56,332 nt of DNA from an uncultured Candidatus Saccharibacteria bacterium (GTDB taxonomy: Bacteria > Patescibacteriota > Minisyncoccia > Phycocordibacterales > WO2-35-19): NCBI GenBank assembly GCA_964440955.1, contig CAYTTP010000003.1, positions 1 to 56,332 of the forward strand. The letters are read 5' to 3'. Of this stretch, positions 454 through 55,077 are shown piece by piece. Numbering within the stretch: position 1 is the stretch's first letter; each line of letters opens with the position of its first letter. The notes under the pieces were generated by a model. It saw only the letters and a program-made list of their open reading frames with translations. It was not told where the DNA came from and searched no databases. Both the position numbers and the translations under genes were made by a program.

Positions 454-604
454 GCGATATATACGGAAGTGTGGCTGAGTGGATGAAAAGCAAACTGCTT
501 TGCTTTTCATCCGGAGCAAAGCGTAGGTGGCAAATATGAAGCCACTGTTCGCAAAGCGACTTCCGTTTGAGCATCGCGATATATACGGAAGTGTGGCTGA
601 GTGG
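454..604 (+). repeat. 5'-side duplication of tRNA-Ser start with a 93-nt structured insert (variant of the tRNA-associated element)
   Basis: A 29-nt direct repeat GCGATATATACGGAAGTGTGGCTGAGTGG lies at 454-482 and 576-604. The insert 483-575 has a 14-bp hairpin with a CUGC apex. ACTTCCG (559-565) pairs with the duplicated acceptor 5' strand (464-470). Confidence 0.7.
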
Positions 605-673
605 TTGAAGGCACCGGTTTCGAAAACCGGCATGCTCGAAAGGGCATCAGAGGTTCAAATCCTCTCACTTCCG
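587..673 (+). tRNA. tRNA-Ser(CGA), class II, no CCA encoded
   Basis: Acceptor GGAAGTG/CACTTCC, anticodon arm CCGGT-TTCGAAA-ACCGG, long variable arm, T arm AGAGG-TTCAAAT-CCTCT, G73. Confidence 0.9.
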
Positions 674-850
674 CAAAACAAGGAACAAAATGAGTAGCAT
701 TTTGCGACTATGTTTTTGCGAGAAAAGGAGAGATTTGAAGACCTTTTGAGCTAAAATTAATTTTAAGAAAATTTTAGCCAAAAGGTGTACTGAAACTGTA
801 AGTTTCAAATCCTCTCACTTCCGCAAAACAAGGAACAAAATGAGTAGCAT
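654..850 (+). repeat. tRNA-3'-end-associated structured element, type B (tRNA-Ser copy), with 47-nt flanking direct repeats
   Basis: Segment 654-700 equals 804-850 (tRNA 3' 20 nt plus 27 nt of trailer, including the ATG of the next ORF). In the 103-nt insert, 712-739 is antisense to 804-829. The end GGTGTACTGAAACTGTAAGT resembles the tRNA-Leu(CAA) copy. Confidence 0.75.
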
Positions 851-1262
851 GTACCCCAAAACCTCCAAAAAACAAAAAATAAAAAAGATGGATACTCCGG
901 TTGGTCCGAAGGACAGTGCCGAAGTCATTTTCTTTGAAGATGCAAAAATTTTTCGTCTCTGGCTCTCGAAAAATGTCGAAAGAGAGGAGGGGATATGGGT
1001 CAGGTTTTTTAAAAAATCTTCTGGCAAGAAAACACTTACATACAAAGAAGCACTTGATGAAGCACTTTGTTTTGGTTGGATAGATAGTTTGTTGCGACGC
1101 TTTGATGACGAATCGTATATTCAAAAATTCACCCCTCGTCGAAAAAAGAGTATGTGGTCACAAGTAAACAAGGGTAAAGTTGCCGAGCTTATAAAAAAGA
1201 AGCGGATGACCAAGCATGGACTTTTTGAAATAGAGCGAGCAAAAAAAGATGGTCGGTGGTGA
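840..1262 (+). CDS. YdeI/OmpD-associated family protein (tentative)
   Basis: 140-aa ORF. FFEDAKIFRLWL...ALCFGWIDS...FTPRRKKSMWSQVN resembles the YdeI/OmdA family pattern. Confidence 0.55.
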   Translation: MSSMYPKTSKKQKIKKMDTPVGPKDSAEVIFFEDAKIFRLWLSKNVEREEGIWVRFFKKSSGKKTLTYKEALDEALCFGWIDSLLRRFDDESYIQKFTPRRKKSMWSQVNKGKVAELIKKKRMTKHGLFEIERAKKDGRW

Positions 1263-1327: not shown

Positions 1328-1398
1328 GGGCCCATAGTTAAGTGGTATAACGCATCCATGGCATGGATGAGGCCGGAGTCCGATTCTCCGTGGGTCCA
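1328..1398 (+). tRNA. tRNA-Ala(GGC), no CCA encoded
   Basis: Acceptor GGGCCCA/TGGGTCC gives the G3:U70 alanine identity pair. Anticodon arm CATCC-ATGGCAT-GGATG, A73. The T loop TCCGATT is atypical. Confidence 0.8.
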
Positions 1399-1545
1399 CA
1401 AGCGTGAAGAAAATCTAAACTGCTTTAGATTTTTAGCTTGTGGAAGGCGCAGTGATGTTTTTGTTTGAGCGAAGCGAAAGGCAAAAACCACGAGCCGGGG
1501 TCGCGAGATTTTTCTGTCAAGAAAAATACTTGTGACCACAAGCGT
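1396..1545 (+). repeat. tRNA-3'-end-associated structured element, type A (tRNA-Ala copy)
   Basis: Direct repeat CCACAAGCGT at 1396-1405 and 1536-1545. Contains a CUGC-apex hairpin (AAAATCTAAA-CTGC-TTTAGATTTT), a hairpin with a GAGCGAAGCGAAA loop, and the 3' module GGGGTCGCGAG-hairpin-ACTTGTGACC (1497-1537). Confidence 0.75.
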
Positions 1546-7387: not shown

Positions 7388-7669
7388 ATGAAAAACTTAA
7401 CCGAATTTATAACTTTTTTTACCGATATGGGGCTTAGGCTTGTACCACTATTTGCTGTCCTCGCCTTCATGTATTTTGTGTGGGGAGTAGCACGCTTCAT
7501 CAAAGCGGCGGGCAATGAAAAAGAGGTGGGGGACAGCAAAAAGATACTTATTTGGGGTGTTGTCGGCCTACTCGTGCTTACAAGTATTTGGGGTATTATT
7601 TCCTTTCTCAAAGGTGAGCTAAGATTTGGCGACAATGTTGGTATTCCTCAAATAAAATTTGAAAATTAG
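7388..7669 (+). CDS. pilin-like small membrane protein, short form
   Basis: 93 aa with two hydrophobic helices. Shared motif: YFVWGVARFIKAAGNEKE...LIWGVVGLLVLTSIWGII. Confidence 0.6.
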   Translation: MKNLTEFITFFTDMGLRLVPLFAVLAFMYFVWGVARFIKAAGNEKEVGDSKKILIWGVVGLLVLTSIWGIISFLKGELRFGDNVGIPQIKFEN

Positions 7670-7679
7670 ATGAAATAAA

Positions 7680-7949
7680 ATGAATGATTTTATTGATAAA
7701 GGTTATTCGATTATCACCAATACTCTCATCCCGCTTGGGTACTTTGTTTGCCTCTTTTACTTTGCTTGGGGTATTGCAAAGTACATCAAATCGATCGGTG
7801 ACGGCAAGGAGCAGGGCAGGCAAATAATGATTTGGGGAGTAGTTGGCCTTTTTGTAGTTACGAGTATTTGGGGTATTATTGAATTTATAAAGCTCGAAGT
7901 TGGCTTGCCTTTCGATAATTCAGAGCTCGATGCAAAAGTTTATAGGTAA
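7680..7949 (+). CDS. pilin-like small membrane protein, short form
   Basis: 89 aa. Motif: YFAWGIAKYIKSIGDGKEQGRQIMIWGVVGLFVVTSIWGII. Confidence 0.6.
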   Translation: MNDFIDKGYSIITNTLIPLGYFVCLFYFAWGIAKYIKSIGDGKEQGRQIMIWGVVGLFVVTSIWGIIEFIKLEVGLPFDNSELDAKVYR

Positions 7950-7961
7950 AAATATAAAAAC

Positions 7962-8318
7962 ATGAAAAATAATTTTAAAAAAATAATTCCGGTTTCCCTC
8001 TTCCTTTTACCAATTTTAACAAGCGCTCAACTTGATGGGACAGACAAATTTTTTGGGAAAGCAAAGTCAATCGTAAGTGATACTTTGGTACCAGGAGCAT
8101 TTTTTGTAGCCCTCGTGTATTTCTTCTACGGTATCGCCAAATACATCAAGTCTGAAGGTGCCGGCAAAGCCGAAGGCAAAATGATCATGGTGTGGGGAGT
8201 GGTCGCTTTGTTTGTTGCTTCGTCAGTTTGGGGTTTGGTCACTCTTTTACAAAAGGAAATAGGGATAAACAGTAACCCTGGCAGTATGAAAATACCAACT
8301 TTAGAAACATATAGATAA
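7962..8318 (+). CDS. pilin-like small membrane protein, short form with signal peptide
   Basis: 118 aa. Motif: YFFYGIAKYIKSEGAGKAEGKMIMVWGVVALFVASSVWGLV. Confidence 0.6.
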   Translation: MKNNFKKIIPVSLFLLPILTSAQLDGTDKFFGKAKSIVSDTLVPGAFFVALVYFFYGIAKYIKSEGAGKAEGKMIMVWGVVALFVASSVWGLVTLLQKEIGINSNPGSMKIPTLETYR

Positions 8319-8323
8319 TATTT

Positions 8324-8620
8324 ATGCTTACAAACACCGAAACTTTTTTGAATCAAGCTATTACTCTTTTGACCAATAGAGTCATACCTATTGTCTTTAT
8401 CCTCGCTACGCTCTACTTCTTTTGGGGCATTGTCAAATACATCAAGTCGGAAGGTGCTGGCAAAGCTGAAGGAAAAGCCATTATGGTGTGGGGAGTAGTA
8501 GCCCTTTTTGTGATGACTAGCGTATGGGGCATCGTTCGCTTGTTGAGAGTTGATTTGCTTAGTGGGCAGGACACCAACAGTATCCAAATCCCAACCGCCA
8601 CTTACGGTACTACTCGCTAA
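8324..8620 (+). CDS. pilin-like small membrane protein, short form
   Basis: 98 aa. Motif: YFFWGIVKYIKSEGAGKAEGKAIMVWGVVALFVMTSVWGIV, near-identical core to the previous gene. Confidence 0.6.
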   Translation: MLTNTETFLNQAITLLTNRVIPIVFILATLYFFWGIVKYIKSEGAGKAEGKAIMVWGVVALFVMTSVWGIVRLLRVDLLSGQDTNSIQIPTATYGTTR

Positions 8621-8751
8621 CCACTTCCCACCTACTCCCTACTCCCTCTGTGGATTACTTTTTGCTTGCAAAGGCAAAAAATGGTAAAGTAATGGTAAAT
8701 TAAAAATGTTTATTCATTTTAATTATTATTAAAAAGTATTTGCTAAATTAA

Positions 8752-9096
8752 ATGAAAAAAGTATCTATAGCAGTAGCGATGGCTCTTTTGCCACTTTCAA
8801 CCTTTGCCCAACAGCTCGGCAATATCAGCAACTTAGTTGATAGCGCAAGCGGTATAATCAATAAGGTTATACCTATATTGTTTACACTTGCTTTGCTCGG
8901 CTTCTTTTGGGGCTTGGTCAGATTTCTTTTTGGTGGTGCTGAAGACAAGGATCAGGCAAAAAACATTATGATTTGGGGCGTAGTAGCGCTTGCGGTCATG
9001 GCTTCAGTTTGGGGATTGGTCAACTTCCTTGGTTCGGCATTTAACATCAACAAGGATGCCGCTCCTTCTGTAAACCCTCTTATTCCAAAACCTTAG
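8752..9096 (+). CDS. pilin-like small membrane protein, short form with signal peptide
   Basis: 114 aa. Motif: FFWGLVRFLFGGAEDKDQAKNIMIWGVVALAVMASVWGLV. Confidence 0.6.
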   Translation: MKKVSIAVAMALLPLSTFAQQLGNISNLVDSASGIINKVIPILFTLALLGFFWGLVRFLFGGAEDKDQAKNIMIWGVVALAVMASVWGLVNFLGSAFNINKDAAPSVNPLIPKP

Positions 9097-9114
9097 TTGG
9101 TCTTTGGTCTACAA

Positions 9115-9148
9115 AACAAAAGAGCCGTATTGTACGGCTCTTTTGTTT
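9115..9148. terminator. bidirectional intrinsic terminator-like hairpin
   Basis: AAAGAGCCGTA-TTG-TACGGCTCTTT, flanked by an A-run and a T-run. Confidence 0.75.
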
Positions 9149-9187
9149 TCCCTTGAATTTTATTACCTAACATTTAGAATTAGAAAT

Positions 9188-9220
9188 ATCACCCCTAGCC
9201 CCTCTTACTTTAAGAGGGGA
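9188..9220. repeat. TCACCCC-hairpin intergenic motif, copy 2
   Basis: ATCACCCCTAG followed by the hairpin CCCCTCTTA-CTT-TAAGAGGGG. The arms are the same as in copy 1. Confidence 0.55.
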
Positions 9221-9251
9221 ACAACAACTTAATTTTTAATTTTCAATCCTT

Positions 9252-9515
9252 ATGCCTGTCATCAAAAGCTTGCTCAATCAAATAGCCACACTCTTTTTGA
9301 ACCCGCTCATCATTCTTGGTTTTGTTGTTGCTACACTCTATCTTTTTTGGGGTATTGGGCAAATGATACTAAACGCCGACTCAAGCAAGCTCGACGAACA
9401 TCGGAAGGGAGTTATTTGGGGCGTTGTTGGCTTACTTATCATGTTCTCCGTTTACGGCATTCTCCGTCTTGTTATCCAAACTTTTGAGATCGAGTGTAAT
9501 TTGTATTTTTGTTAG
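9252..9515 (+). CDS. pilin-like small membrane protein, short form (divergent)
   Basis: 87 aa. Motif: LYLFWGIGQMILNADSSKLDEHRKGVIWGVVGLLIMFSVYGIL. Confidence 0.55.
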   Translation: MPVIKSLLNQIATLFLNPLIILGFVVATLYLFWGIGQMILNADSSKLDEHRKGVIWGVVGLLIMFSVYGILRLVIQTFEIECNLYFC

Positions 9516-18003: not shown

Positions 18004-18076
18004 CCGCCCGTAGCTCAGTTGGTAGAGCAGCTCCCTCTTAAGGAGATGGTCGTAGGTTCGACTCCTACCGGGCGGA
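18004..18076 (+). tRNA. tRNA-Lys(CUU), no CCA encoded
   Basis: Acceptor CCGCCCG/CGGGCGG, D arm GCTC-AGTTGGTA-GAGC, anticodon loop CTCTTAA, T arm GTAGG-TTCGACT-CCTAC, A73. The C1:G72 pair is unusual. Confidence 0.85.
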
Positions 18077-18239
18077 CAATATTGTTTCGCAATATTGTTC
18101 GACCGAGCACGCAAACTGCTTTGCGTGCGTGTAGGAAGTCGAAAGCCGGAGCCATGTTGAGCGAAGCGAAACAGGCGAGGCGGGGTCGCAAGATTTTGCT
18201 AAGCAAAATACTTGTGACCGACTCCTACCGGGCGGACAA
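18059..18239 (+). repeat. tRNA-3'-end-associated structured element, type A (tRNA-Lys copy 1), with 21-nt direct repeats
   Basis: CGACTCCTACCGGGCGGACAA lies at 18059-18079 and 18219-18239. The element carries TGTTCGACCG (antisense to the acceptor 3' strand), a CUGC-apex hairpin, GTAGGAAGTCG (antisense to CGACTCCTAC), a GAGCGAAGCGAA loop, and GGGGTCGCAAG-hairpin-ACTTGTGACC. Confidence 0.78.
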
Positions 18240-18372
18240 GCGTGAAGAAAATCTAAACTGCTTTAGATTTTTAGCTTGTCCGAGACGGAGCCATGTTTTT
18301 GTAGCAACAAAAACAGGCGAGTCAGGATCGTGGAAATTTTTGAGCGACGGCGATAAAATTATCCATGATGAC
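18240..18372 (+). repeat. tRNA-3'-end-associated structured element, type A, second tandem copy (divergent 3' module)
   Basis: It starts with AGCGTGAAGAAAATCTAAACTGCTTTAGATTTTTAGCTTGT, identical to the tRNA-Ala copy. The 3' module GTCAGGATCGTGGA-hairpin-TCCATGATGAC is analogous but diverged. GACAATATTG recurs at 18075 and 18370. Confidence 0.65.
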
Positions 18373-18449
18373 AATATTGCGAAGTGGTGATGATTTACGA
18401 AACTTAATATAAAACGAAGGGCACTCGATGTTCGGGTGCCCTTAGGAAT

Positions 18450-26877: not shown

Positions 26878-26883
26878 TATAAT
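26878..26883 (+). promoter_or_regulatory. possible -10 box for the RT leader RNA
   Basis: A perfect TATAAT. The -35 region is weak (AGTGAA at 17-nt spacing). Confidence 0.35.
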
Positions 26884-26889
26884 TCCCTA

Positions 26890-27135
26890 GAACACCACTT
26901 ATGAGCACGTGAGAGAAAGATGAACGAACATTGGTGGTGTCCTAAGCCCGAAAGTGGCGAGGGTAAGGCCGCTTGAGATCCAAGTCGGACTACCAGCATA
27001 CCCCCAAGATCTTCTGGTTTACTCTAAAGAGAGTATTCCGCTCCATCGTGTGACGATGAAGGCTGTTTTTCGACGTCTCTCACAGGTCCAAGCCGGACTG
27101 TTTTGATTGTAGCATGTTTTTATATATAAGTTTAG
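26890..27135 (+). ncRNA. candidate structured noncoding leader RNA of the RT module
   Basis: About 250 nt with no credible ORF. Stems: ACACCAC/GTGGTGT (26892-26898/26934-26940), GTGAGAGA/TCTCTCAC (26909-26916/27076-27083), CATCGT-GTG-ACGATG (27044-27058). A 13-nt direct repeat lies at 26979 and 27087. Confidence 0.45.
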
Positions 27136-28056
27136 TTGTATAAATCAAATAAAATAGGTTATCCTCTGTTCGGAGGCCTTGTGGATAAACCTGCATTTGA
27201 AAGGTATTTTCTGAGAGATGTAAATCATCAGAGTGGTAGGGTGAAAAATCGAGAAATTTTTGCTCCAAACGATTCAATGCGTGAGGTGCAAGAGGGTATA
27301 GTGGCCAAACTTCGGTCTTTGGAGATTGAGATGCCGAGCGCGACTGGTGGTGTCAGGAATGGTTCGCCAGTCAATAACGTCCTCAAACATTGGTCACCTT
27401 ACAATAAGAGTGCGAGATACTTTTTTCTGCTTGATCTAGCATCTGCTTACAAGAATGTCCTTGTGAGCGATATGTTAGTTGAACTGAAGAGGGTGTGGCC
27501 ACATGATTGCGACGAGAAGTTTGTTCAGAGTGTTATGAATCACTGCTTGATACCGGGTGAGGGTTTGGCAACTGGAGGTAACGCCTCGCCAGATATTTTC
27601 AACCTATGTATGGAGATTTCGATTGATCGGCAAATACGCTCGTATGCCGAATACAACGATCTCACCTACACTCGTTATCTCGATGATCTGACTTTCTCAT
27701 CTCCTTTTCCGATAGGTAAGAGGAAGAGGAATACGATCATCAAGATTCTCACTGAAGCTGGTTGTGTCGTTAACCATCAAAAGTCTCAGGTGCTTGATAT
27801 CGAAAAGCATCATGTGGAAATAAATGGTATCGGCTTGCGTCGTAGCGGACACTTCTTCATGCCTAGTCGGGTCTTGGATGAGTTAAAAAACTTGCTCTAT
27901 CGGGCAACTAGAGGGGAGTCCATTTCCGATTCTCTCATTCAAGGCAAGATGGGCGGGTTCATCTATCTTAGGAGAAAAGGCTTGCTTGCTCTGACCGAGA
28001 GAGAACGTAATATCCTTCGACGGTACGAGCAATATCTGCCGTTGCGCCGGGGTTAA
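27136..28056 (+). CDS. reverse transcriptase, minimal stand-alone type (retron/defence-RT-like)
   Basis: RT motifs: NREIFAPNDSMREVQ, SATGGVRNGSPVNNVLKH, FFLLDLASAY, GLATGGNASPDIFNL, YTRYLDDLTFSS (27676-27687), VNHQKS, EINGIGL. The likely true start is GTG 27181, behind GGAGG at 27172-27176. Confidence 0.88.
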   Translation: MYKSNKIGYPLFGGLVDKPAFERYFLRDVNHQSGRVKNREIFAPNDSMREVQEGIVAKLRSLEIEMPSATGGVRNGSPVNNVLKHWSPYNKSARYFFLLDLASAYKNVLVSDMLVELKRVWPHDCDEKFVQSVMNHCLIPGEGLATGGNASPDIFNLCMEISIDRQIRSYAEYNDLTYTRYLDDLTFSSPFPIGKRKRNTIIKILTEAGCVVNHQKSQVLDIEKHHVEINGIGLRRSGHFFMPSRVLDELKNLLYRATRGESISDSLIQGKMGGFIYLRRKGLLALTERERNILRRYEQYLPLRRG

Positions 28057-28130
28057 ATCCTCGGCGCTCTGTTTTTAATAGTGTGTAAAAATTTTGAAAT
28101 ATCTGGTATTGTGTGCGGAGGAGGTGAACT

Positions 28131-28535
28131 ATGTCCAGTATCTCGAATAGAGAAATGACATTTGTTGTAGCTGTTCTGTACTCTTTGCCCGAAAAGTGGC
28201 GAGGGGTTGGCCGTTCTTTCTCGTTTGAGGATGTGCAAGATAGGCTACATCTTGCTTGGCATAGACTCTATCAAGAAGGATTGCTTGGGGAGTTTGGTGA
28301 ATCGTTTTCTTTTGACGCTCTTTGTGGCTCAGACAGTCTTGGGCAAGCACTTCGCACAGCTGCGGTAGATGGGCTCATAAGGATCGGTGGCTCTGATATG
28401 GCTTATCATGTTGATGTCCTGAAGCCTGACCAAATTGATCGTATGTTAGAGTCGTGCGTAATAGACCGAAGTGCCGTGACTACTGCTGTCAAACGTCTCG
28501 AAGCTATTCTCGAAGAGAAACCCTCCCCGGCTTAG
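28131..28535 (+). CDS. hypothetical 134-aa protein, RT-associated
   Basis: Strong RBS GGAGGAGG 7 nt upstream of the ATG. Same strand as the RT and 74 nt after it. No motif recognised. Confidence 0.6.
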   Translation: MSSISNREMTFVVAVLYSLPEKWRGVGRSFSFEDVQDRLHLAWHRLYQEGLLGEFGESFSFDALCGSDSLGQALRTAAVDGLIRIGGSDMAYHVDVLKPDQIDRMLESCVIDRSAVTTAVKRLEAILEEKPSPA

Positions 28536-28597: not shown

Positions 28598-28681
28598 GCG
28601 TCGGTGGTAGAGTGGTCAATTACAACAGACTGTAAATCTGTCGCCCATTGGGCTACGCAGGTTCGAATCCTGCCCGGCGCA
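28598..28681 (+). tRNA. tRNA-Tyr(GUA), class II, no CCA encoded
   Basis: Acceptor GCGTCGG/CCGGCGC, anticodon arm CAGAC-TGTAAAT-CTG, long variable arm CGCCCATTGGGC, T arm GCAGG-TTCGAAT-CCTGC, A73. Confidence 0.88.
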
Positions 28682-28872
28682 CAAAATAAAACCCAGCTTC
28701 TGCTGGTGTTTTATTTTGTGCGCCGGAAGTGCAGCTTTGTGTAGCAAAGCGTAGCACGGATTCGAAAGGCGGAAGAAATTTTTTAGCAAAAAAATTTCTG
28801 AGCCGGGGTCGCGAGCGATTTTGCTTGACTGAAGCAAAATCGACTTGTGACCGAATCCTGCCCGGCGCACCA
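28664..28872 (+). repeat. tRNA-3'-end-associated structured element, type A (tRNA-Tyr copy), with 19-nt direct repeats
   Basis: CGAATCCTGCCCGGCGCAC lies at 28664-28682 and 28852-28870; the second copy reads through to ...ACCA. Internal antisense segments are GTGCGCCGG (28718-28726) and GCACGGATTCG (28754-28764). The 3' module GGTCGCGAG-hairpin-CTTGTGACC is at 28807-28852. Confidence 0.8.
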
Positions 28873-36209: not shown

Positions 36210-36470
36210 ATGTATTACGTCTATATTCTTAAAAATTTAGAGTCTGACTACTTATACATAGGCTACAGTTGTAATCTCAGAAGGAGAATAGAAGAACATA
36301 AAAGTGGTAAGGTTTATACCACCAAGCGATTAGGTAAAAATATCGAGCTTATTTACTACGAAGCTTATAAGAGCAAAGAGGATGCGCAGGATAGGGAAAA
36401 GAGTTTTAAAAAATCTGGTTCAGTGTATAATGGCCTTATTAAAAGAATAAAGAGAAGTAGGGGTGATTAG
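36210..36470 (+). CDS. GIY-YIG nuclease family protein (short stand-alone type)
   Basis: MYYVYILKNLESDYLYIGYSCNLRRRIEEHKSG...YYE... carries the GIY-YIG motifs. The last 10 nt overlap the tRNA-Trp 5' end. The track ORF from 36123 reads through the pseudo-tRNA and is probably not the real start. Confidence 0.8.
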   Translation: MYYVYILKNLESDYLYIGYSCNLRRRIEEHKSGKVYTTKRLGKNIELIYYEAYKSKEDAQDREKSFKKSGSVYNGLIKRIKRSRGD

Positions 36471-36534
36471 TTAAGTGGCATAATAGCGGTCTCCAAAACC
36501 GCGGTCGTGGGTTCGATTCCCTCATCACCCGCCA
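36461..36534 (+). tRNA. tRNA-Trp(CCA), CCA encoded
   Basis: Acceptor GGGTGAT/ATCACCC, anticodon arm GCGGT-CTCCAAA-ACCGC, T arm GTGGG-TTCGATT-CCCTC, then G73-CCA. Confidence 0.9.
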
Positions 36535-36588
36535 AGTCGGGTAGCGCCCGAGACGCGTTAATGAAATACTTTTTAGGTTTTGCATAGA
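36510..36588 (+). repeat. att-like repeat A (tRNA-Trp 3' end plus trailer)
   Basis: GGTTCGATTCC...CCCGCCAAGTCG-hairpin-AGACGCGTTAATGAAATAC-TTTTTAGGTTTTGCATAGA aligns with 37861-37939. Confidence 0.65.
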
Positions 36589-37256
36589 TGAAGGATACAA
36601 AATATTCGTATCAGAATTTAGTAGGATATATAAGTAGAATAATATTTATATTTGGCGTACCACTTATATTTGTCTATTTTTTTATTTATAAACCACTCAC
36701 TTTAAATAAATGTTTTTCATTTGTTAGTGAGGATGCTCTAAATAACAAGACTGTTGAAATTCAGGTGATCCGTTCTTTGGACCAGGTTGCACAAGAAATT
36801 AAATCATTGGATCCTATTTTACCATTAAATAATGACTGGTTTAAATTTAATGTAACTTTTAGTAATAATTTTAAAGTTGCAATAGTAACATCTAAACCAG
36901 ATTCATACACAGAGGCAACGACAACTTTTTTCTTAGAAACAAAAAACGGAAGCTCTACTATTCCATATGACCAGAAAATAATCATCAATGAAGTAGGGTC
37001 AGAAAATTTAAATAGTCTTATTACAAATCTTGGTTTTATTACAAACAATAAACCTATTTATGTACCTGGCGGCAGTATGATTTCCTTACAAACTAATCCA
37101 AATTTAGGTCAGTTCTGCTCTTTAGTGGAATTAAGTAGAAAATACAAGTTATTAATATACATTGAATCTCTTATAATATTTATTGGTCTGCTTTTAATAA
37201 CCAAAGAAATAATTAGCTTTATAAAACAAGGATTTTCAAATTATTTTAAATTATGA
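36588..37256 (+). CDS. hypothetical membrane protein (very AT-rich)
   Basis: 222 aa with N- and C-terminal hydrophobic helices. No motif recognised. Confidence 0.45.
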   Translation: MKDTKYSYQNLVGYISRIIFIFGVPLIFVYFFIYKPLTLNKCFSFVSEDALNNKTVEIQVIRSLDQVAQEIKSLDPILPLNNDWFKFNVTFSNNFKVAIVTSKPDSYTEATTTFFLETKNGSSTIPYDQKIIINEVGSENLNSLITNLGFITNNKPIYVPGGSMISLQTNPNLGQFCSLVELSRKYKLLIYIESLIIFIGLLLITKEIISFIKQGFSNYFKL

Positions 37257-37283
37257 TAACCTCTGGCCAGAAGGAGGTATGTT

Positions 37284-37763
37284 TTGAACGAACATTGGAC
37301 AGAGATTGAAATTCAAGCTTTGGCCGGAGTCTCAACGTTTGAGGAATTGGCTGAGGTTGCAGTTTGTATTGTTGGACGCATGAGTGCAACTGGAAAGGAG
37401 GTAGTCCAAATCTGTGGGCCAATGAGTACTGGCGGGCTCGGCAACCTAAAGGACAACATGGCCCGTTTTCGTTTGGCCATTGATCGAGCTGCTGAAAATG
37501 GCATCTTGGTCTTCGACCAAATTCCTTTCCAGAACGAGATTATCCGTCTCTGTTCTTTTAAGGAAGGGCAAGACAAATACGATTGGGAGATTCTTGAGGT
37601 TTTCTACAAAAGAATTTTCGAATCAGGTTATGTCCATCGTGCTCTTTTTCTACCAGGTTGGGAGGATTCAGTGGGAGCGAGTTGGGAGCGAGAACTTACA
37701 ACCAAACTTGGCCTCATTGTTGAAGACTACCCAGTCGAGTGGCTTCAGGATTTATGGGTCTGA
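37284..37763 (+). CDS. hypothetical protein
   Basis: 159 aa. TTG start 6 nt after AAGGAGG. GC-richer than the neighbouring ORFs. Confidence 0.5.
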   Translation: MNEHWTEIEIQALAGVSTFEELAEVAVCIVGRMSATGKEVVQICGPMSTGGLGNLKDNMARFRLAIDRAAENGILVFDQIPFQNEIIRLCSFKEGQDKYDWEILEVFYKRIFESGYVHRALFLPGWEDSVGASWERELTTKLGLIVEDYPVEWLQDLWV

Positions 37764-37805
37764 ACAGAAGTTCAGACCCAATTTTGTTACCGCCCGAGAT
37801 GCTTC

Positions 37806-37939
37806 GATTATGCTAGTATAAAAATAATAAGAAAAGCCTTGTGGTGCAATGAACAAAAGAGGTTCGAATCCGAGACGGCCCGCCAAGTCGTGCACAGCAC
37901 GAGATGCATTAATGAAATAGTTTTCTAATTTTGCATAGA
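37806..37939 (+). repeat. att-like repeat B (tRNA-3'-end-like GGTTCGAATCCGAGACGGCCCGCCA with shared flanks)
   Basis: 37861-37939 matches repeat A. 37806-37885 matches 38878-38957 (TGCTAGTATAAAA...CTTGTGG...CCGAGACGGCCCGC). No cloverleaf can be drawn. Confidence 0.6.
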
Positions 37940-37974
37940 CTTACCTTAAATTTATGAGCTGATATAATTTTGGT

Positions 37975-38388
37975 ATGAAAATCATTGATCCCGGCCATAT
38001 CTACGAGCTAAGGCAATTAGGCGATGATAAGACTCAAACTCTGACTTTTATAAAACGTTCTAGTGGTACAATCCAATATGATAAAGAATGGTCAGGACTT
38101 CAAACTCAAGAAGTTTTAAGAGCTTTGATAGATAGGACTTTATATTTAGATAAGGTTTTAGAATGTAAAGAAACAAAAGAAGCAATTAAACATCTCCGAG
38201 CTACCTTATACTGGTATGAAGTGAGAGCTTTGAGGAGAAAAAGATCAAAAACAAATCGAACAACAAACAACCATGATGATTCTGAAACTCCTCCCTATGA
38301 AATGCAATATGCTCCAGATATTCCATTTACTGAAGTTGATATAGAGAAAAAAGAGATTGGAGAGGATGGTCATATAATTCAGTATTAA
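37975..38388 (+). CDS. hypothetical protein
   Basis: 137-aa ORF. No motif recognised. Confidence 0.45.
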   Translation: MKIIDPGHIYELRQLGDDKTQTLTFIKRSSGTIQYDKEWSGLQTQEVLRALIDRTLYLDKVLECKETKEAIKHLRATLYWYEVRALRRKRSKTNRTTNNHDDSETPPYEMQYAPDIPFTEVDIEKKEIGEDGHIIQY

Positions 38389-38390
38389 AT

Positions 38391-38879
38391 ATGAGGAATT
38401 CTACTCTTGTTTTTTTGGTTAAAAGGAATACTAGCAAGAATATTGAAAATATTTGTCTTGCTATGAAAAAGAGAGGCTTTGGGGCTGGGCGATATAACGG
38501 CACAGGTGGAAAGGTAGAAGAAGAAACTATAGAAGAAGCAGCCATTCGGGAAACAAGAGAGGAGATTGGTGTTCAAGTGGAAAATTTAGTTAAAGTTGCA
38601 AAATTAGAATTTAGATTTCCACATAATCCAGCATGGGATCAGATAGTGCATGTATTTTTGTCAGAAATTTGGGATGGAGAACTGACGGAAAGTGAAGAGA
38701 TGAAACCAGAATGGTTTTCGGTTAGTAAGATTCCATACGATACTATGTGGCCAGATGATAAGTTCTGGTTGCCAAAAGTTATTGCTGGAGATCTGATTAA
38801 AGGTAGTTTCGTCTTTGGTGAGAATGATATTGTAGTTCAGCAAGAAGTCGATGTGGTATCTATGTTCAGGGAAGCTTAG
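38391..38879 (+). CDS. NUDIX hydrolase (MutT-like)
   Basis: Nudix box GGKVEEETIEEAAIRETREEIGV. Confidence 0.85.
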   Translation: MRNSTLVFLVKRNTSKNIENICLAMKKRGFGAGRYNGTGGKVEEETIEEAAIRETREEIGVQVENLVKVAKLEFRFPHNPAWDQIVHVFLSEIWDGELTESEEMKPEWFSVSKIPYDTMWPDDKFWLPKVIAGDLIKGSFVFGENDIVVQQEVDVVSMFREA

Positions 38880-38957
38880 ATTGTGCTAGTATAAAATTGA
38901 TTAGAAAAATCTTGTGGGACGACAAACTTAAAATGTTTGAACCCGAGACGGCCCGCA
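38878..38957 (+). repeat. att-like repeat C (partial)
   Basis: TTGTGCTAGTATAAAATTG...TCTTGTGGGACGACAAAC...TTTGAACCCGAGACGGCCCGCA aligns with 37806-37885. Confidence 0.55.
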
Positions 38958-40949: not shown

Positions 40950-41030
40950 GCCGGAGTGGCGGAATGGTAGACGCGCACGACTCAAAATCGTGTCTCGCAA
41001 GGGGTGGAGGTTCAAGTCCTCTCTCCGGCA
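40950..41030 (+). tRNA. tRNA-Leu(CAA), class II, no CCA encoded
   Basis: Acceptor GCCGGAG/CTCCGGC, anticodon arm CACGA-CTCAAAA-TCGTG, variable arm, T arm GGAGG-TTCAAGT-CCTCT, A73. Confidence 0.88.
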
Positions 41031-41190
41031 CAGATTGAGCAAAGCGAAAGTGGTGTCGGAGAGGCGTAGCTTTTTGTAAAAAAGCGTTACGCGGACTTGA
41101 AACCCGATTGAGATTTTTTAGGAGTATCGCGAACTAAAAAACCAATTGGGGTACTGAGTCTGTAAGACTCAAGTCCTCTCTCCGGCACCA
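41012..41190 (+). repeat. tRNA-3'-end-associated structured element, type B (tRNA-Leu copy), with 20-nt direct repeats
   Basis: TCAAGTCCTCTCTCCGGCAC lies at 41012-41031 and 41169-41188; the second copy ends ...ACCA. TGGTGTCGGAGAGG (41051-41064) is antisense to CCTCTCTCCGGCACCA. GGACTTGA (41093-41100) is antisense to TCAAGTCC. It begins with GAGCAAAGCGAAAG. Confidence 0.78.
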
Positions 41191-45933: not shown

Positions 45934-46116
45934 AATACGAAGTAACGAATTGATTGCGAATATATACGAATGTATCTAAGAATAAATGGAAAAGGCGGAA
46001 AATGCAAAATCGCACCTCAAACAGACCTCACCCTCGCTCCGCTCTCCTTACAGGAGCTGTACACCTTTCGCATTAGGAAATGCTCAAGGTCTTGCGAAGC
46101 TCCACGCATTCACTTC

Positions 46117-46143
46117 TCACCCTCTCCTAGACTTAGGAGAGGG
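46117..46143. repeat. TCACCC-hairpin intergenic motif, copy 4
   Basis: TCTCAC, then the hairpin CCCTCTCCTA-GACT-TAGGAGAGGG. Confidence 0.45.
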
Positions 46144-54729: not shown

Positions 54730-55061
54730 TCCGGGATAGCTCAGCGGTAGAGCGAGCGACTGTGTCGTGACGCAGCTTCCAAAAGAAATTTTGGTTGAAA
54801 AACGAGGTGAATTCGGGGGAACCCCAAGTGGGCAATCCCGAGCCAATCCTAAATTAAAGAAAGATATTGTTGTGTAAAAACTTTAATTAAGGCAGGTGTA
54901 GAGACTATTCCGAAAGGAAGTACTTACTCCGTATTTCGGAGTCGGGAAGCGCCTCGCTCCTAATAGCCAATTTGGTTAAAGGAGATGATATAGTCCATAC
55001 TTCTAGTAATAGAAGAGAATATGTAATCGCTTGGTCGTAGGTTCGATCCCTACTCCCGGAG
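54730..55061 (+). tRNA. tRNA-Asn(GUU) interrupted by a group I intron in the anticodon loop; no CCA encoded
   Basis: Exons 54730-54763 and 55024-55061 join to give acceptor TCCGGGA/TCCCGGA (U1:A72, G73 as in tRNA-Asn), anticodon arm AGCGA-CTGTTAA-TCGCT, T arm GTAGG-TTCGATC-CCTAC. Confidence 0.85.
54764..55023 (+). ncRNA. group I intron (IC3-like), 260 nt, no ORF
   Basis: The 5' exon ends in U and the intron ends in G. GCAG (54772-54775) can pair with the exon CUGU as P1. The core strings GAATTCGGGGGAACCCCAAG, GAGCCAA and GGTGTAGAGACTA (54895-54907) match the conserved core of bacterial tRNA group I introns. Confidence 0.85.
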
Positions 55062-55077
55062 CAAAGGAATTTAATAT

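Follow-up and report, generated by a model that had tools for sequence, protein, structure and literature searches.

A duplicated tRNA-Ser tail and an apparently undescribed family of tiny non-coding elements behind tRNA genes of Patescibacteria

In the stretch of DNA analyzed here (the window, i.e., the whole 56,332-nt contig CAYTTP010000003.1 of assembly GCA_964440955.1, whose positions are used as coordinates throughout), the 3' end of an intact tRNA-Ser(CGA) gene and its downstream flank occur twice, separated by a short non-coding insert. This arrangement raises the question of what kind of sequence lies between the two copies, how the repeat came about, and whether the start of the following gene was duplicated with it. 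Comparisons within the window and among other genomes suggest an answer that involves a widespread and apparently undescribed family of tiny non-coding elements located behind tRNA genes.

The tRNA-Ser locus

The exact identity of the two repeat copies, which had been originally predicted, was confirmed (47/47 nt for 654-700 and 804-850). A match of this length is far beyond chance, and it widens to 50 nt with one mismatch when 651-700 is compared with 801-850. The repeat consists of the last 21 nt of tRNA-Ser (654-674, beginning at T-loop position 54/55), a 15-nt trailer, and ATGAGTAGCAT. An AAGGAA Shine-Dalgarno-like box lies within the trailer at 680-685 and again at 830-835. The 103-nt insert between the copies (Table 1) contains no ORF, and its two ends (TTTGCGACTAT... 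and ...CTGTAAGT) do not form an inverted repeat with one another; the inverted repeats at this locus are found between the element and its target, not between the element ends.

The insert also carries a segment antisense to the tRNA end (S'), which had been described as nearly continuous over 28 nt. The antisense relationship is real, whereas its continuity did not hold up, with approximately 24 matched positions and 4 gaps in the alignment of 712-739 with 804-829. The same local score was reached by 2 of 2000 shuffles of the insert. S' is predicted to be able to pair with either sense copy (654-679 or 804-829), and the fold predicted by RNAfold pairs 712-739 with 804-829. The H1 hairpin, which interrupts S' in most family members, is absent from the tRNA-Ser copy. 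With a covariance model (R1) based on 112 members of the family, 717-853 obtains a score of 80.3 bits (E = 1.4e-17), a match that is not independent because the tRNA-Ser copy is itself part of the model building.

Table 1. Features of the tRNA-Ser locus and related elements in the window
Feature	Position	Strand	Remarks
5' mirror-image element	454..609	+	454-487 = 576-609, 34 nt, one mismatch
tRNA-Ser(CGA), intact	587..674	+	ARAGORN; Rfam tRNA model, 58.5 bits
Direct-repeat copy 1 (tRNA 3' part, trailer with AAGGAA, ATGAGTAGCAT)	654..700	+	Completes the working tRNA-Ser
Decoy ORF, 19 codons, MSSILRLCFCEKRRDLKTF*	690..749	+	Duplicated Shine-Dalgarno-like box and ATG; translation
Non-coding insert, 103 nt (type B element body)	701..803	+	Between the repeat copies, just behind tRNA-Ser
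Antisense segment S'	712..739	+	Imperfect reverse complement of TTCAAATCCTCTCACTTCCGCAAAAC; alignment and shuffle test
Hairpin H2 of the conserved core (ACCTTTTGAGCTAAAATT ... AATTTTAGCCAAAAGGT)	741..786	+	Base stem covaries family-wide
Family signature GGTGTACTGA-AA-CTGTAAG-TT-TCAA	784..808	+	Motif scan
Hairpin H3 (GAAAC TGTAA GTTTC)	792-806	+	3' strand enters the T-loop box of repeat copy 2
Direct-repeat copy 2	804..850	+	tRNA 3' fragment now outside any tRNA, trailer, AAGGAA, ATG 840
ydeI-like ORF	840..1262	+	ATG 840 inside repeat copy 2; deposited annotation starts at ATG 888
Type A element at the very 3' end of tRNA-Ala	1396..1545	+	Repeat of just 10 nt (CCACAAGCGT)
Type A element behind tRNA-Lys	18059..18238	+	20-nt repeat, 18059-18078 / 18219-18238
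Type A element behind tRNA-Tyr	28664..28870	+	19-nt repeat, 28664-28682 / 28852-28870
Second type B element, behind tRNA-Leu(CAA)	41012..41188	+	20-nt repeat, 41012-41031 / 41169-41188

The original prediction counted the start codon of the downstream gene as part of the repeat and regarded ATG 690 as a decoy upstream of the real gene. ATG 690 does open a short ORF that runs into the insert and stops at 747-749, and ATG 840 does lie within the second repeat copy; its role as the true start is, however, not established. In the deposited record, a 124-aa product starts at ATG 888, the 16 residues encoded by 840-888 are not conserved in homologues, and most ydeI-like homologues begin near residue 17. 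On the basis of these comparisons, a duplicated start codon of the downstream gene is only possible. The nearest ydeI-like homologue is 65% identical, and the gene is C-terminally truncated relative to its homologues of approximately 190 aa. On the + strand, the search for terminator-like sites between tRNA-Ser and the ydeI-like ORF found none, so that the element would form a transcribed leader of this gene. The search for orthologous or empty tRNA-Ser/ydeI junctions found none, and exact-protein look-ups gave nothing. Metagenome scans with the empty-site pattern and the trailer recovered the locus neither filled nor empty from a collection that does not include this species, and no empty allele or excised form was found.

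A mirror-image element was also observed on the 5' side of the same tRNA. Its repeat covers 11 nt of leader and tRNA-Ser positions 1-23, ending just past the D-loop GG, and its 88-nt insert (488-575) contains an antisense stretch (CGACTTCC) as well as a hairpin whose loop is CTGC. A promoter-like site is predicted at 416-443, upstream of the first copy of this 5' repeat. An upstream copy of the tRNA's own first 16 nt was detected for 10 of the 192 tRNAs in the fetched loci, and two loci (L025 and L033) have the same 5'-type junction, after GAGTGG. This element, the scale of the family, and the covarying core described below were all absent from the original prediction.

Related elements in the window and across Patescibacteria

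More than half of the tRNA genes in the window carry such elements. The proposal of a discrete type B element was borne out, as both its right-end motif and its layout were seen again at tRNA-Leu(CAA) of the window and in no fewer than 120 other genomes. The tRNA-Leu element has antisense parts at 41050-41064 and 41093-41101 and is scored at 80.2 bits by R1, with this copy likewise belonging to the model-building set. Elements of a sister type (type A) were found behind tRNA-Lys, where the right end reads GGGGTCGCRAG..ACTTGTGACC and a further element follows in tandem from 18239, as well as at tRNA-Tyr and tRNA-Ala; contigs of the same strain from independent Logan assemblies end within the tRNA-Ala element. 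At both tRNA-Tyr and tRNA-Leu, CCA follows the downstream copy only. In addition, tRNA-Trp of the window is associated with two gene cassettes, each bounded by tRNA-tail-like sequence. The sole reverse transcriptase found is encoded by a retron-type ORF at 27136-28056 (RVT_1, 2e-13; RT_II-A retron model, 1.7e-23), approximately 26 kb from the tRNA-Ser element and preceded by about 250 nt of structured non-coding DNA. A link between the elements and this retron was considered and dropped, as none of the related loci has such an enzyme.

A motif search with the right end retrieved at least 120 loci, all of them in Patescibacteria assemblies. In approximately 90 of these loci the motif lies 80-150 nt behind a same-strand tRNA, and 92 of the 159 same-strand tRNAs in all retrieved loci have the motif no more than 260 nt downstream; the bearing tRNAs belong to 18 amino-acid types. 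The common layout begins with the tRNA and its trailer, where a terminator-like hairpin is often present. Next comes S', which copies the 3' part of the tRNA (T-loop, T-stem, and 3' strand of the acceptor) in antisense and is usually interrupted by H1; then a conserved core formed by H2, GTACTGA, and H3 (with a TGTAA loop), whose two hairpins covary strongly; and finally tRNA sequence in sense orientation for the second time, starting in the T loop and reaching the 3' end or sometimes beyond. H3 ends in the T-loop box TTCGA/TTCAA. Most elements directly follow a terminator-like hairpin with a T run, both tandem arrays and truncated copies occur, and about 9 loci have cargo of 1-3.3 kb between the tRNA and the element. 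At least two unrelated cores, those of types A and B, occur in this one layout. Some elements are found at the same tRNA across different species (such as L015 and L040), indicating that they are old and conserved.

No type B match was present in viral contigs, and the single type A match among them (L004) is located on a contig with ordinary cellular genes. Analysis of the whole window with Rfam 15 returned only tRNAs and one group I intron and no match to the elements; for 380-1600, no relevant Rfam match was obtained at E up to 10, and the same was true for 10 related loci. Several structured RNAs (hammerhead-like, group I/II intron, tmRNA, and bulge-helix-bulge intron) were considered and rejected on account of a misfit in motif order, lack of a model match, or the complete tRNA already present upstream. 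No description of these elements was found in the literature searched, and they go unmentioned in a paper on the group I introns that occur in tRNA genes of Patescibacteria.

The relationship between each element and its own tRNA was examined for 88 elements, allowing at most one mismatch and taking the expectation from random re-pairing. The T-stem/acceptor 12-mer of the own tRNA recurs after the motif in 50 of the 88 elements (1.4 expected), whereas the antisense acceptor 7-mer and the antisense T-stem/T-loop 7-mer are found inside the insert in 58 (17.9 expected) and 74 (17.2 expected), respectively. The sense copy is exact in 48/88 elements and the antisense copy in 12/88; together with the 47/47 repeat and the approximately 24/28 agreement of S' at tRNA-Ser, these values imply that S' looks older than the duplication. 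Where the two sense copies differ, S' is nearer to the upstream tRNA copy in 21 cases and to the downstream copy in 1. This bias was dropped as a sign of selection because neutral decay of the downstream copy alone predicts the same, and the downstream tRNA tail is decayed in approximately 40% of copies.

The two edges of the duplication behave differently. It had been proposed that the duplicated segment is defined by the target locus and not by the tRNA, which proved half correct: the right edge depends on the locus, but the left edge is set by the tRNA and lies at the conserved TTCGA/TTCAA T-loop box in every member. Among 26 loci with a repeat of at least 19 nt, the right edge ranges from 2 nt before to 47 nt after the called tRNA end and in 20 of them lies within 3 nt downstream of it. 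Repeat lengths are 10, 19, 20, and 47 nt in the window and reach 42 nt at a single insertion and 67 nt in a tandem copy elsewhere, and the locus-specific flank within the repeat amounts to 26 nt at tRNA-Ser and a whole terminator in locus L050. An encoded CCA was detected in 6/50 downstream copies, 16/99 element-free tRNAs, and 6/92 element-bearing tRNAs. These counts indicate that the downstream copy keeps the original flank.

The core shows strong signs of conserved pairing. Paired cells reach 97.6% (76% in shuffles), compensatory cells number 243 (66 in shuffles), and the covariation score of 0.494 (0.119 in shuffles) was reached by none of 500 shuffles and collapsed in slid controls. The two free pairs of H3 show 38 and 60 compensatory changes among 112 sequences. 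On the other hand, in counts meant to tell RNA folding from DNA folding, mismatches in the helices are equally often G-T and A-C in one count (20 vs 20) and show no G-T excess in the other (19 vs 13), which weakly argues against a classical structured RNA. Moreover, cores that are at least 88% identical were found behind different tRNAs, with identity ending at the core edges and both S' and the sense copy following the local tRNA. The tRNA-Ser core of the window, with a nearly identical H2, occurs behind tRNA-Val, tRNA-Glu, and tRNA-Arg elsewhere (L023, L077, and L047), and the similar cores at a tRNA-Tyr and a tRNA-Leu (L059 and L075) belong to one assembled genome. These sequence comparisons indicate that the core moves or is exchanged between tRNAs.

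Possible origins of the elements

All-against-all clustering of 927 ORFs from 120 loci revealed no element-associated protein family. The largest protein clusters are common to no more than 13 of the 120 loci and, as judged by eye, appear to be housekeeping. No obvious integrase was seen by eye among the cargo ORFs, no recombinase was present among 20 ORFs of the window, and neither blastp nor tblastn found relatives of the window reverse transcriptase in the 120 loci. With an insert devoid of ORFs and none of the protein families enriched across the 120 loci, the elements are best regarded as non-autonomous.

The best explanation, to which we give about even confidence, is that the tRNA-Ser insert is one copy of a family of protein-less, non-autonomous insertion elements for the 3' flanks of Patescibacteria tRNA genes, and that the repeat is duplicated target. 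The duplication has one fixed and one variable edge, and from this anatomy we infer how the element may have entered. It would have been inserted behind tRNA-Ser with concomitant duplication of a segment that begins at the T-loop box and stops 26 nt beyond the tRNA, so that the intact tRNA would remain on the left and a non-functional tail with the copied flank (ribosome-binding site and ATG) on the right. The universally conserved T-loop box, mimicked by the 3' end of the element itself, would fix the left edge, and the right edge would vary between loci. Most plausibly, S' would serve as a pairing module by which the element, folded as a single strand, stays attached to the 3' half of the tRNA, and any enzyme involved would have to act in trans. 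Several observations can nevertheless be read otherwise: a regenerated tRNA with a displaced fragment is also the geometry of a classical integrase, identical cores at different tRNAs might result from gene conversion between resident copies instead of transposition, the old copies shared between species would also fit a retained function, and gene conversion rather than recency could keep the repeat copies identical. A bolder version of the insertion reading, possible but doubtful, is that the elements are self-targeting and guided by base pairing, in which case S' would anneal as folded single-strand DNA or RNA to the tRNA 3' half, the 3' end of the element, mimicking the palindromic T-loop box, would prime or join there, and the target tail would be copied as a by-product. 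If true, this would represent a new programmable insertion into conserved boxes of tRNA genes, with types A and B using the T loop and the 5' type using the D-loop GG; it would be driven by base pairing and need just host enzymes or one unlinked trans factor.

The geometry shared with integrases makes classical site-specific integration a possible, though not a probable, origin of the repeat. The elements would then be minimal integrative elements, gene-free attachment sites that a tyrosine integrase encoded elsewhere recombined within the T loop; the 3' end of the upstream tRNA and its trailer or terminator would have arrived with the element, and the downstream copy would be the displaced original. 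The intact tRNA with a displaced 3' fragment at tRNA-Ser, which recurs in 50 of 88 family members, and the direct repeats that begin in the T loop and run to the tRNA 3' end or beyond are consistent with it, and so are the tandem arrays, the cargo at about 9 loci, the two tRNA-Trp cassettes, the restriction of CCA to the downstream copies at tRNA-Tyr and tRNA-Leu of the window, and an upstream-copy terminator that differs from the downstream-copy flank at several loci (such as L022 and L030). However, no recombinase is encoded in the insert or adjacent to it, and no integrase stands out in the 120 loci, the cargo, or the 20 window ORFs. Ordinary integrase synapsis requires more than a double-stranded circle of just 120-190 bp. 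Furthermore, an attachment site leaves the antisense copy and the covarying but sequence-unconserved hairpins unexplained, and the element would have to have carried 26 nt identical to the host flank, including part of a gene. A rather unlikely view is that of a resident functional RNA, in which S', core, and tRNA tail would form a small RNA resembling a tRNA (the "top half" of acceptor and T arm, its T loop replaced by a three-way junction) and kept for processing, stability, or control of the downstream gene, with the repeat as a local duplication under selection. Predicted folds do pair S' with the downstream tail into a tRNA-like acceptor, T-stem, and branch hairpins, the core covaries strongly, some elements are conserved at the same tRNA between species, and the tRNA-Ser element would lie in a leader that has no terminator-like site on the + strand. 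Yet the mismatches lack the excess of G-T over A-C typical of structured RNAs, most elements are placed directly behind a terminator-like hairpin, about 40% of downstream tails are decayed, at least two unrelated cores share the layout, tandem and truncated copies occur, no Rfam family matches, and the downstream genes are unrelated.

Copying through RNA, i.e., a reverse transcriptase that copies element RNA or retron-like single-stranded DNA into tRNA genes, is quite improbable. The window encodes a candidate enzyme; S' has the orientation of DNA copied from the 3' end of the tRNA, as in the primer-binding site of retroviruses; and target-primed reverse transcription typically gives variable-length duplications, with which the variable repeat length would agree by analogy. 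Against it, the window enzyme has no relative in the 120 loci, H1 interrupts S', which is hence not a plain tRNA copy, and CCA follows just 12% of downstream tails, a background level on which copying of a mature tRNA was rejected. A mis-joined or expanded repeat in one metagenome-assembled contig is very unlikely because the architecture recurs in the same order, and with a repeat that fits the local tRNA, in more than 120 independent assemblies from many studies, as well as at several other tRNAs of the same contig; still, family repeats do break short-read assemblies (as in the Logan contigs mentioned above), and a second assembly of the tRNA-Ser locus was not found.

Patescibacteria genomes are tiny, yet more than half of the window's tRNA genes bear such elements, and the family occurs in at least 120 species-level genomes and at 18 tRNA specificities. 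With regard to annotation, the elements give rise to fragments of tRNAs, to decoys of ribosome-binding sites and start codons, and to breaks in assemblies, and they mark hot spots where gene cassettes also gather. The combination of a constant scaffold with target-matched sense and antisense parts and no linked protein raises the testable possibility of base-pairing-guided insertion. If an unlinked integrase does the work instead, gene-free attachment-site elements of approximately 100-190 nt would represent an unusual extreme.

Comparison with known systems

With respect to genomic islands and tycheposons, the Islander abstract and the tycheposon paper describe integrases that leave an intact tRNA and a partial copy as direct repeats. 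The elements resemble them in using tRNA genes as targets, in these flanking repeats, in a repeat that extends from a tRNA loop to or past the 3' end, and in tandem arrays at one tRNA. However, islands and tycheposons are kilobases long and carry their own integrase, whereas the tRNA-Ser insert has 103 nt, no ORF, and no linked recombinase, and it combines an antisense copy of the target with a covarying core, neither of which attachment sites are known to need.

Similarities to MITEs, REP/BIME, Correia, and ERIC sequences include a small, non-coding, multi-copy, intergenic, hairpin-rich, and non-autonomous nature. Unlike MITEs, the tRNA-Ser element has no matching terminal inverted repeats, and the family is strictly associated with tRNA 3' ends in one orientation, with part of each element matched to its target. 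MITEs normally have fixed target duplications of 2-10 bp, whereas the duplication here is long and variable, typically approximately 10-23 nt and 47 nt at tRNA-Ser. Long duplications that differ in length with each insertion are shared with IS1634-type elements. The latter are 1.5-2 kb in length, encode a transposase, and have terminal inverted repeats and target duplications of tens of bases with varying length; they show neither tRNA specificity nor an antisense segment. Palindromic elements derived from IS200/IS605 adjoin a short fixed motif, are driven by TnpA, and produce no target duplication, in contrast to the 10-47 nt duplicated here. Retron non-coding RNA has a branching G and lies beside its reverse transcriptase; its paired ends are superficially similar, but the tRNA-Ser element is about 26 kb from the sole reverse transcriptase found, which has no relative in the 120 loci.

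The integron attC site and the XerCD site of CTX phage function as a folded single strand, an imperfect palindrome in which pairing is kept and sequence is variable. The folded strand mimics the double-stranded target, tiny gene-free cassettes exist, and arrays accumulate. The likeness to the present elements (a folded imperfect palindrome of variable sequence, small gene-free units, and arrays) is one of principle only: attC is defined by the IntI integrase, attI, and conserved R and L boxes, and the target here is a tRNA gene. Group II introns (EBS/IBS) and the bridge RNA of IS110 do not duplicate 20-47 nt of target, and the elements have no intron domains, Rfam match, or IS110-type recombinase; what they have in common with both is a target-complementary segment that varies while the scaffold is constant.

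The Ser repeat and other elements of the window

The direct repeat around the 3' end of tRNA-Ser is exact (47/47), as the original prediction had stated, and is real rather than an artefact; extended to 651/801 it reaches 50 nt with one mismatch. Because tRNA-Ser(CGA) occupies 587-674, the repeat begins within the T loop, and it comprises the 3' strands of the T-stem and acceptor followed by 26 nt of flank, namely an AAGGAA box and ATGAGTAGCAT. The insert between the copies has no ORF of its own. The antisense stretch described as nearly continuous is present, its score being equalled in just 2 of 2000 shuffles, but it is an imperfect reverse complement in which about 24 positions match and 4 gaps occur. 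An ORF of 19 codons does open at ATG 690, the duplicated codon regarded as a decoy start. The insert belongs to a large family of insertion elements that flank tRNAs, here termed type B and sharing a right-end motif, and this copy appears recent.

Features of the window and their positions
Feature	Position	Remarks
Promoter-like site	416-443	Ahead of the first 5' copy
5' repeat	454-487 and 576-609	34 nt, one mismatch; leader and first 23 nt of tRNA-Ser
5' element	454-609	Mirror-image; 88-nt insert
tRNA-Ser(CGA)	587-674	
Ser repeat	654-700 and 804-850	47 nt
Ser insert	701-803	103 nt
Antisense stretch	712-739 against 804-829	
ydeI-like gene	840-1262	
tRNA-Ala element	1396-1545	Type A; 10-nt repeat
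Diverged direct repeats	7544-9363	65-98 nt; 60-80% identity
tRNA-Lys element	18059-18400	Type A; 20-nt repeat; two in tandem
Probable retron unit	26880-28535	
Reverse transcriptase ORF	27136-28056	Pfam RVT_1; PADLOC RT_II-A, 1.7e-23
134-aa ORF	28131-28535	No family match; between reverse transcriptase and tRNA-Tyr
tRNA-Tyr element	28664-28870	Type A; 19-nt repeat
tRNA-Trp cassettes	36461-38956	Two, 1.35 and 1.07 kb
tRNA-Leu(CAA) element	41012-41031 and 41169-41188	20-nt repeat
Degenerate type B-like core	45997-46132 (-)	Between dprA and the next gene
Apparent tRNA-Asn(GUU)	54730-55070	Anticodon loop split by intron
Group I intron	54754-55016	Rfam, 78 bits

The same arrangement was found at tRNA-Leu(CAA), tRNA-Lys, tRNA-Tyr and tRNA-Ala. 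The right end at tRNA-Leu(CAA) is nearly identical to that of the Ser insert (GGKGTACTGA-NN-CTGTAAG-NN-TCAA), and a small hairpin is altered on both of its arms (GAAAC/GTTTC in Ser vs GAGTC/GACTC in Leu). Type A elements have the antisense/hairpin/sense layout of type B with a different core and a different conserved right end, GGGGTCGCRAG..hairpin..ACTTGTGACC; just three further copies occur within the 120 type B loci listed. In addition, the insert of the mirror-image element upstream of tRNA-Ser carries antisense CGACTTCC and has a predicted tRNA-like fold. An upstream copy of the tRNA's own first 16 nt was detected at 10 of 192 tRNAs in related loci, including loci L025 (tRNA-Ser(cga)) and L033 (tRNA-Tyr). 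At these two and at tRNA-Ser of the window, the junction of the 5' type lies directly after the D-loop GG. Types A and B have their junction at the T-loop box. No other sequence blocks are as conserved across all tRNAs as these two, and joining there would let one mechanism serve many different tRNAs.

Several related sequences were also observed. A type B-like core (GACCTTGAGCAT..GCGAAAGGTGTAC..CTCCTGTAAGGAG) that is degenerate and has no tRNA nearby gave a weak match to the family model (13.7 bits, E = 0.07). Three Logan contigs of the same strain (L001-L003), independent short-read assemblies encoding a protein identical to the product of 1599-2222, all stop inside the tRNA-Ala element, 115-188 nt upstream of that protein gene; thus, such repeats fragment assemblies. 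The 34.7-kb IMG/VR contig L004, flagged viral, ends in two or more type A-like units in tandem and a partial third cut by the contig end, beside ordinary cellular genes (serine acetyltransferase, UDP-glucose epimerase and cytidine deaminase).

Distribution and layout of the type B family

Scanning of the right-end motif over one genome per species yielded at least 120 loci, and all listed matches belong to Patescibacteria assemblies (Paceibacterota, Nomura-, Taylor-, Kaiser- and Lloydbacteria, Minisyncoccia and others). Within the sources searchable here, the family is apparently undescribed. ARAGORN placed a same-strand tRNA upstream of 90 of the 122 motif matches listed, covering 18 amino-acid types, and in nearly all of these 90 the motif follows the tRNA end by roughly 80-150 nt (five are further off or abutting). 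Several of the other matches lie at a contig edge or behind an intron-containing tRNA.

Directly behind the tRNA comes a trailer, in very many cases an almost perfect hairpin that has a T run and adjoins the tRNA end with one arm and the antisense segment with the other. Next come an antisense copy of the acceptor's 3' strand, hairpin H1 (its loop being, for instance, CTGGGAG or AACTGCTT; missing in the Ser copy and in loci L037 and L063), an antisense copy of T-stem and T loop, hairpin H2, GTACTGA, hairpin H3 with a TGTAA loop, and finally the T-loop box, where the tRNA tail appears in sense orientation for the second time. In the 88 elements that have a tRNA next to them, allowing at most one mismatch and taking random re-pairing as the expectation, the T-stem/acceptor 12-mer recurred downstream of the motif in 50 (expected 1.4), and the insert contained the antisense acceptor 7-mer in 58 (expected 17.9) and the antisense T-stem/loop 7-mer in 74 (expected 17.2). 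In an alignment of 112 cores, 97.6% of cells in the two core helices were paired (76% in shuffles) and 243 were compensatory (66 in shuffles); the covariation score of 0.494 (0.119 shuffled) was matched by none of 500 shuffles and collapsed when partners were slid. Because the retrieval motif itself fixes, at least partly, 9 of the 13 core pairs, the covariation evidence is carried by the H2 base stem and two free H3 pairs.

Possible movement, structure and origin of the repeat

Cores at least 88% identical were found behind different tRNAs; the Ser core also lies behind Val, Glu and Arg tRNAs in other genomes, and one assembled genome holds both L059 (Tyr) and L075 (Leu). In pairwise alignments, core identity ends at the core edges, and the antisense and sense segments fit the local tRNA. 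Transposition with retargeting would place like cores behind unlike tRNAs in this way, and gene conversion of cores among resident copies would explain them equally. As for the repeat, three observations favour host sequence duplicated at insertion. It includes purely local flank, 26 nt in the Ser copy and an entire terminator in locus L050, so the proposal that the locus and not the tRNA sets the duplicated segment holds for this part, but the segment starts at the T-loop box. The 26 nt in the upstream Ser copy are functionless, yet identical to those downstream, and the Ser sense copies match throughout whereas the antisense segment differs at several positions and is gapped. Of 88 family members, 48 carry an exact sense copy but only 12 an exact antisense copy; the antisense segment therefore looks older than the repeat. 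It would travel with the element, the repeat being produced on arrival. The original flank stays with the downstream copy. CCA is encoded behind 12% of downstream copies and 16% of element-free tRNAs, but only 6.5% of element-bearing tRNAs. These figures also argue against copying from mature, CCA-tailed RNA.

Folding predictions give strong, tRNA-like structures in which branches join an acceptor and a T-stem, and this speaks for elements acting as structured RNA. That reading is weakened by helix mismatches without G-T excess over A-C (20 vs 20, and 19 vs 13), by the terminator-like hairpin directly ahead of most elements and by decay of the downstream tail in about 40% of copies. On the + strand between tRNA-Ser and the ORF no terminator-like site was found, and the Ser element would therefore be transcribed. 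Overall, the evidence leans, though not decisively, towards structure relevant in single-stranded DNA, or repeats from templated copying.

Neighbouring genes and comparison with known systems

The start codon of the ydeI-like gene had been placed in the repeat. ATG 840 has a better ribosome-binding box than ATG 888, but a gene start there is still in doubt: the record deposited for this 56,332-base contig gives a 124-aa product with N-terminus MDTPVG, that is, ATG 888. Most homologues (the nearest other one 65% identical) begin at about residue 17 of the longer version, whose first 16 residues show no conservation among them. The gene lacks the C-terminal third of its ~190-aa homologues and may have been truncated by rearrangement. 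It ends directly after the conserved GRW, the PF13376 part, C-terminal in all close homologues, is missing, and tRNA-Ala with its own element lies 65 nt beyond.

No protein family was associated with the elements among the 120 loci listed, and no recombinase or integrase was found among 20 window ORFs. In about nine loci (including L009, L053, L060, L064, L072, L086, L089 and L093), 1-3.3 kb of cargo separates the type B element from its cognate tRNA, with no obvious integrase among the cargo genes as judged by eye. The cargo ends of L060 and L064 share the motif TTCCAATT..ACTAA..GGGTCA, suggesting yet another tRNA-tail-targeting element family. The retron-type reverse transcriptase of the window has no relative in any related locus; with ~250 nt of non-coding DNA upstream that folds strongly, its region is probably a retron defence unit.

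Behind tRNA-Trp lie two cassettes that encode a DUF4406 and a NUDIX protein and contain two further, unknown ORFs. Both cassettes end in a conserved ~60 nt followed by a tRNA-tail-like GGTTCGAATCCGAGACGGCCCGC, unlike the resident tail; they resemble an array of cassettes founded at a tRNA. In loci L092, L098, L118, L097 and L080, no tRNA precedes the type B element; inter-locus conserved sequence lies there instead, 250-600 nt upstream, with recurring blocks GGAATCAGCCGAGG..CGAATCCTTTCCC and a start similar to GTGCGCACGGG. This sequence has no Rfam, tRNA or tmRNA match and may represent a structured RNA or an intron of unknown kind. The apparent tRNA-Asn, missed by ARAGORN, agrees with the recent report of group I introns in Patescibacteria tRNA genes (PMC13011429). 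The diverged repeats, in a run of small ORFs, look like a tandem set of paralogues encoding small membrane proteins.

Integrase-borne islands and tycheposons have the same geometry as the type B elements, but no linked recombinase, their defining feature, was found with the latter, which are 10-100 times smaller, and those systems leave the antisense segment and the covarying core unexplained. With neither terminal inverted repeats nor a fixed short duplication, the elements fall outside MITEs, and no Rfam family matches them. Folded attachment sites, IS1634-type long repeats and guide-bearing elements offer resemblances rather than memberships. The Ser element is classed as a variant among tRNA-targeting insertion or integration elements, for which pairing-guided insertion has a credible chance and is testable.
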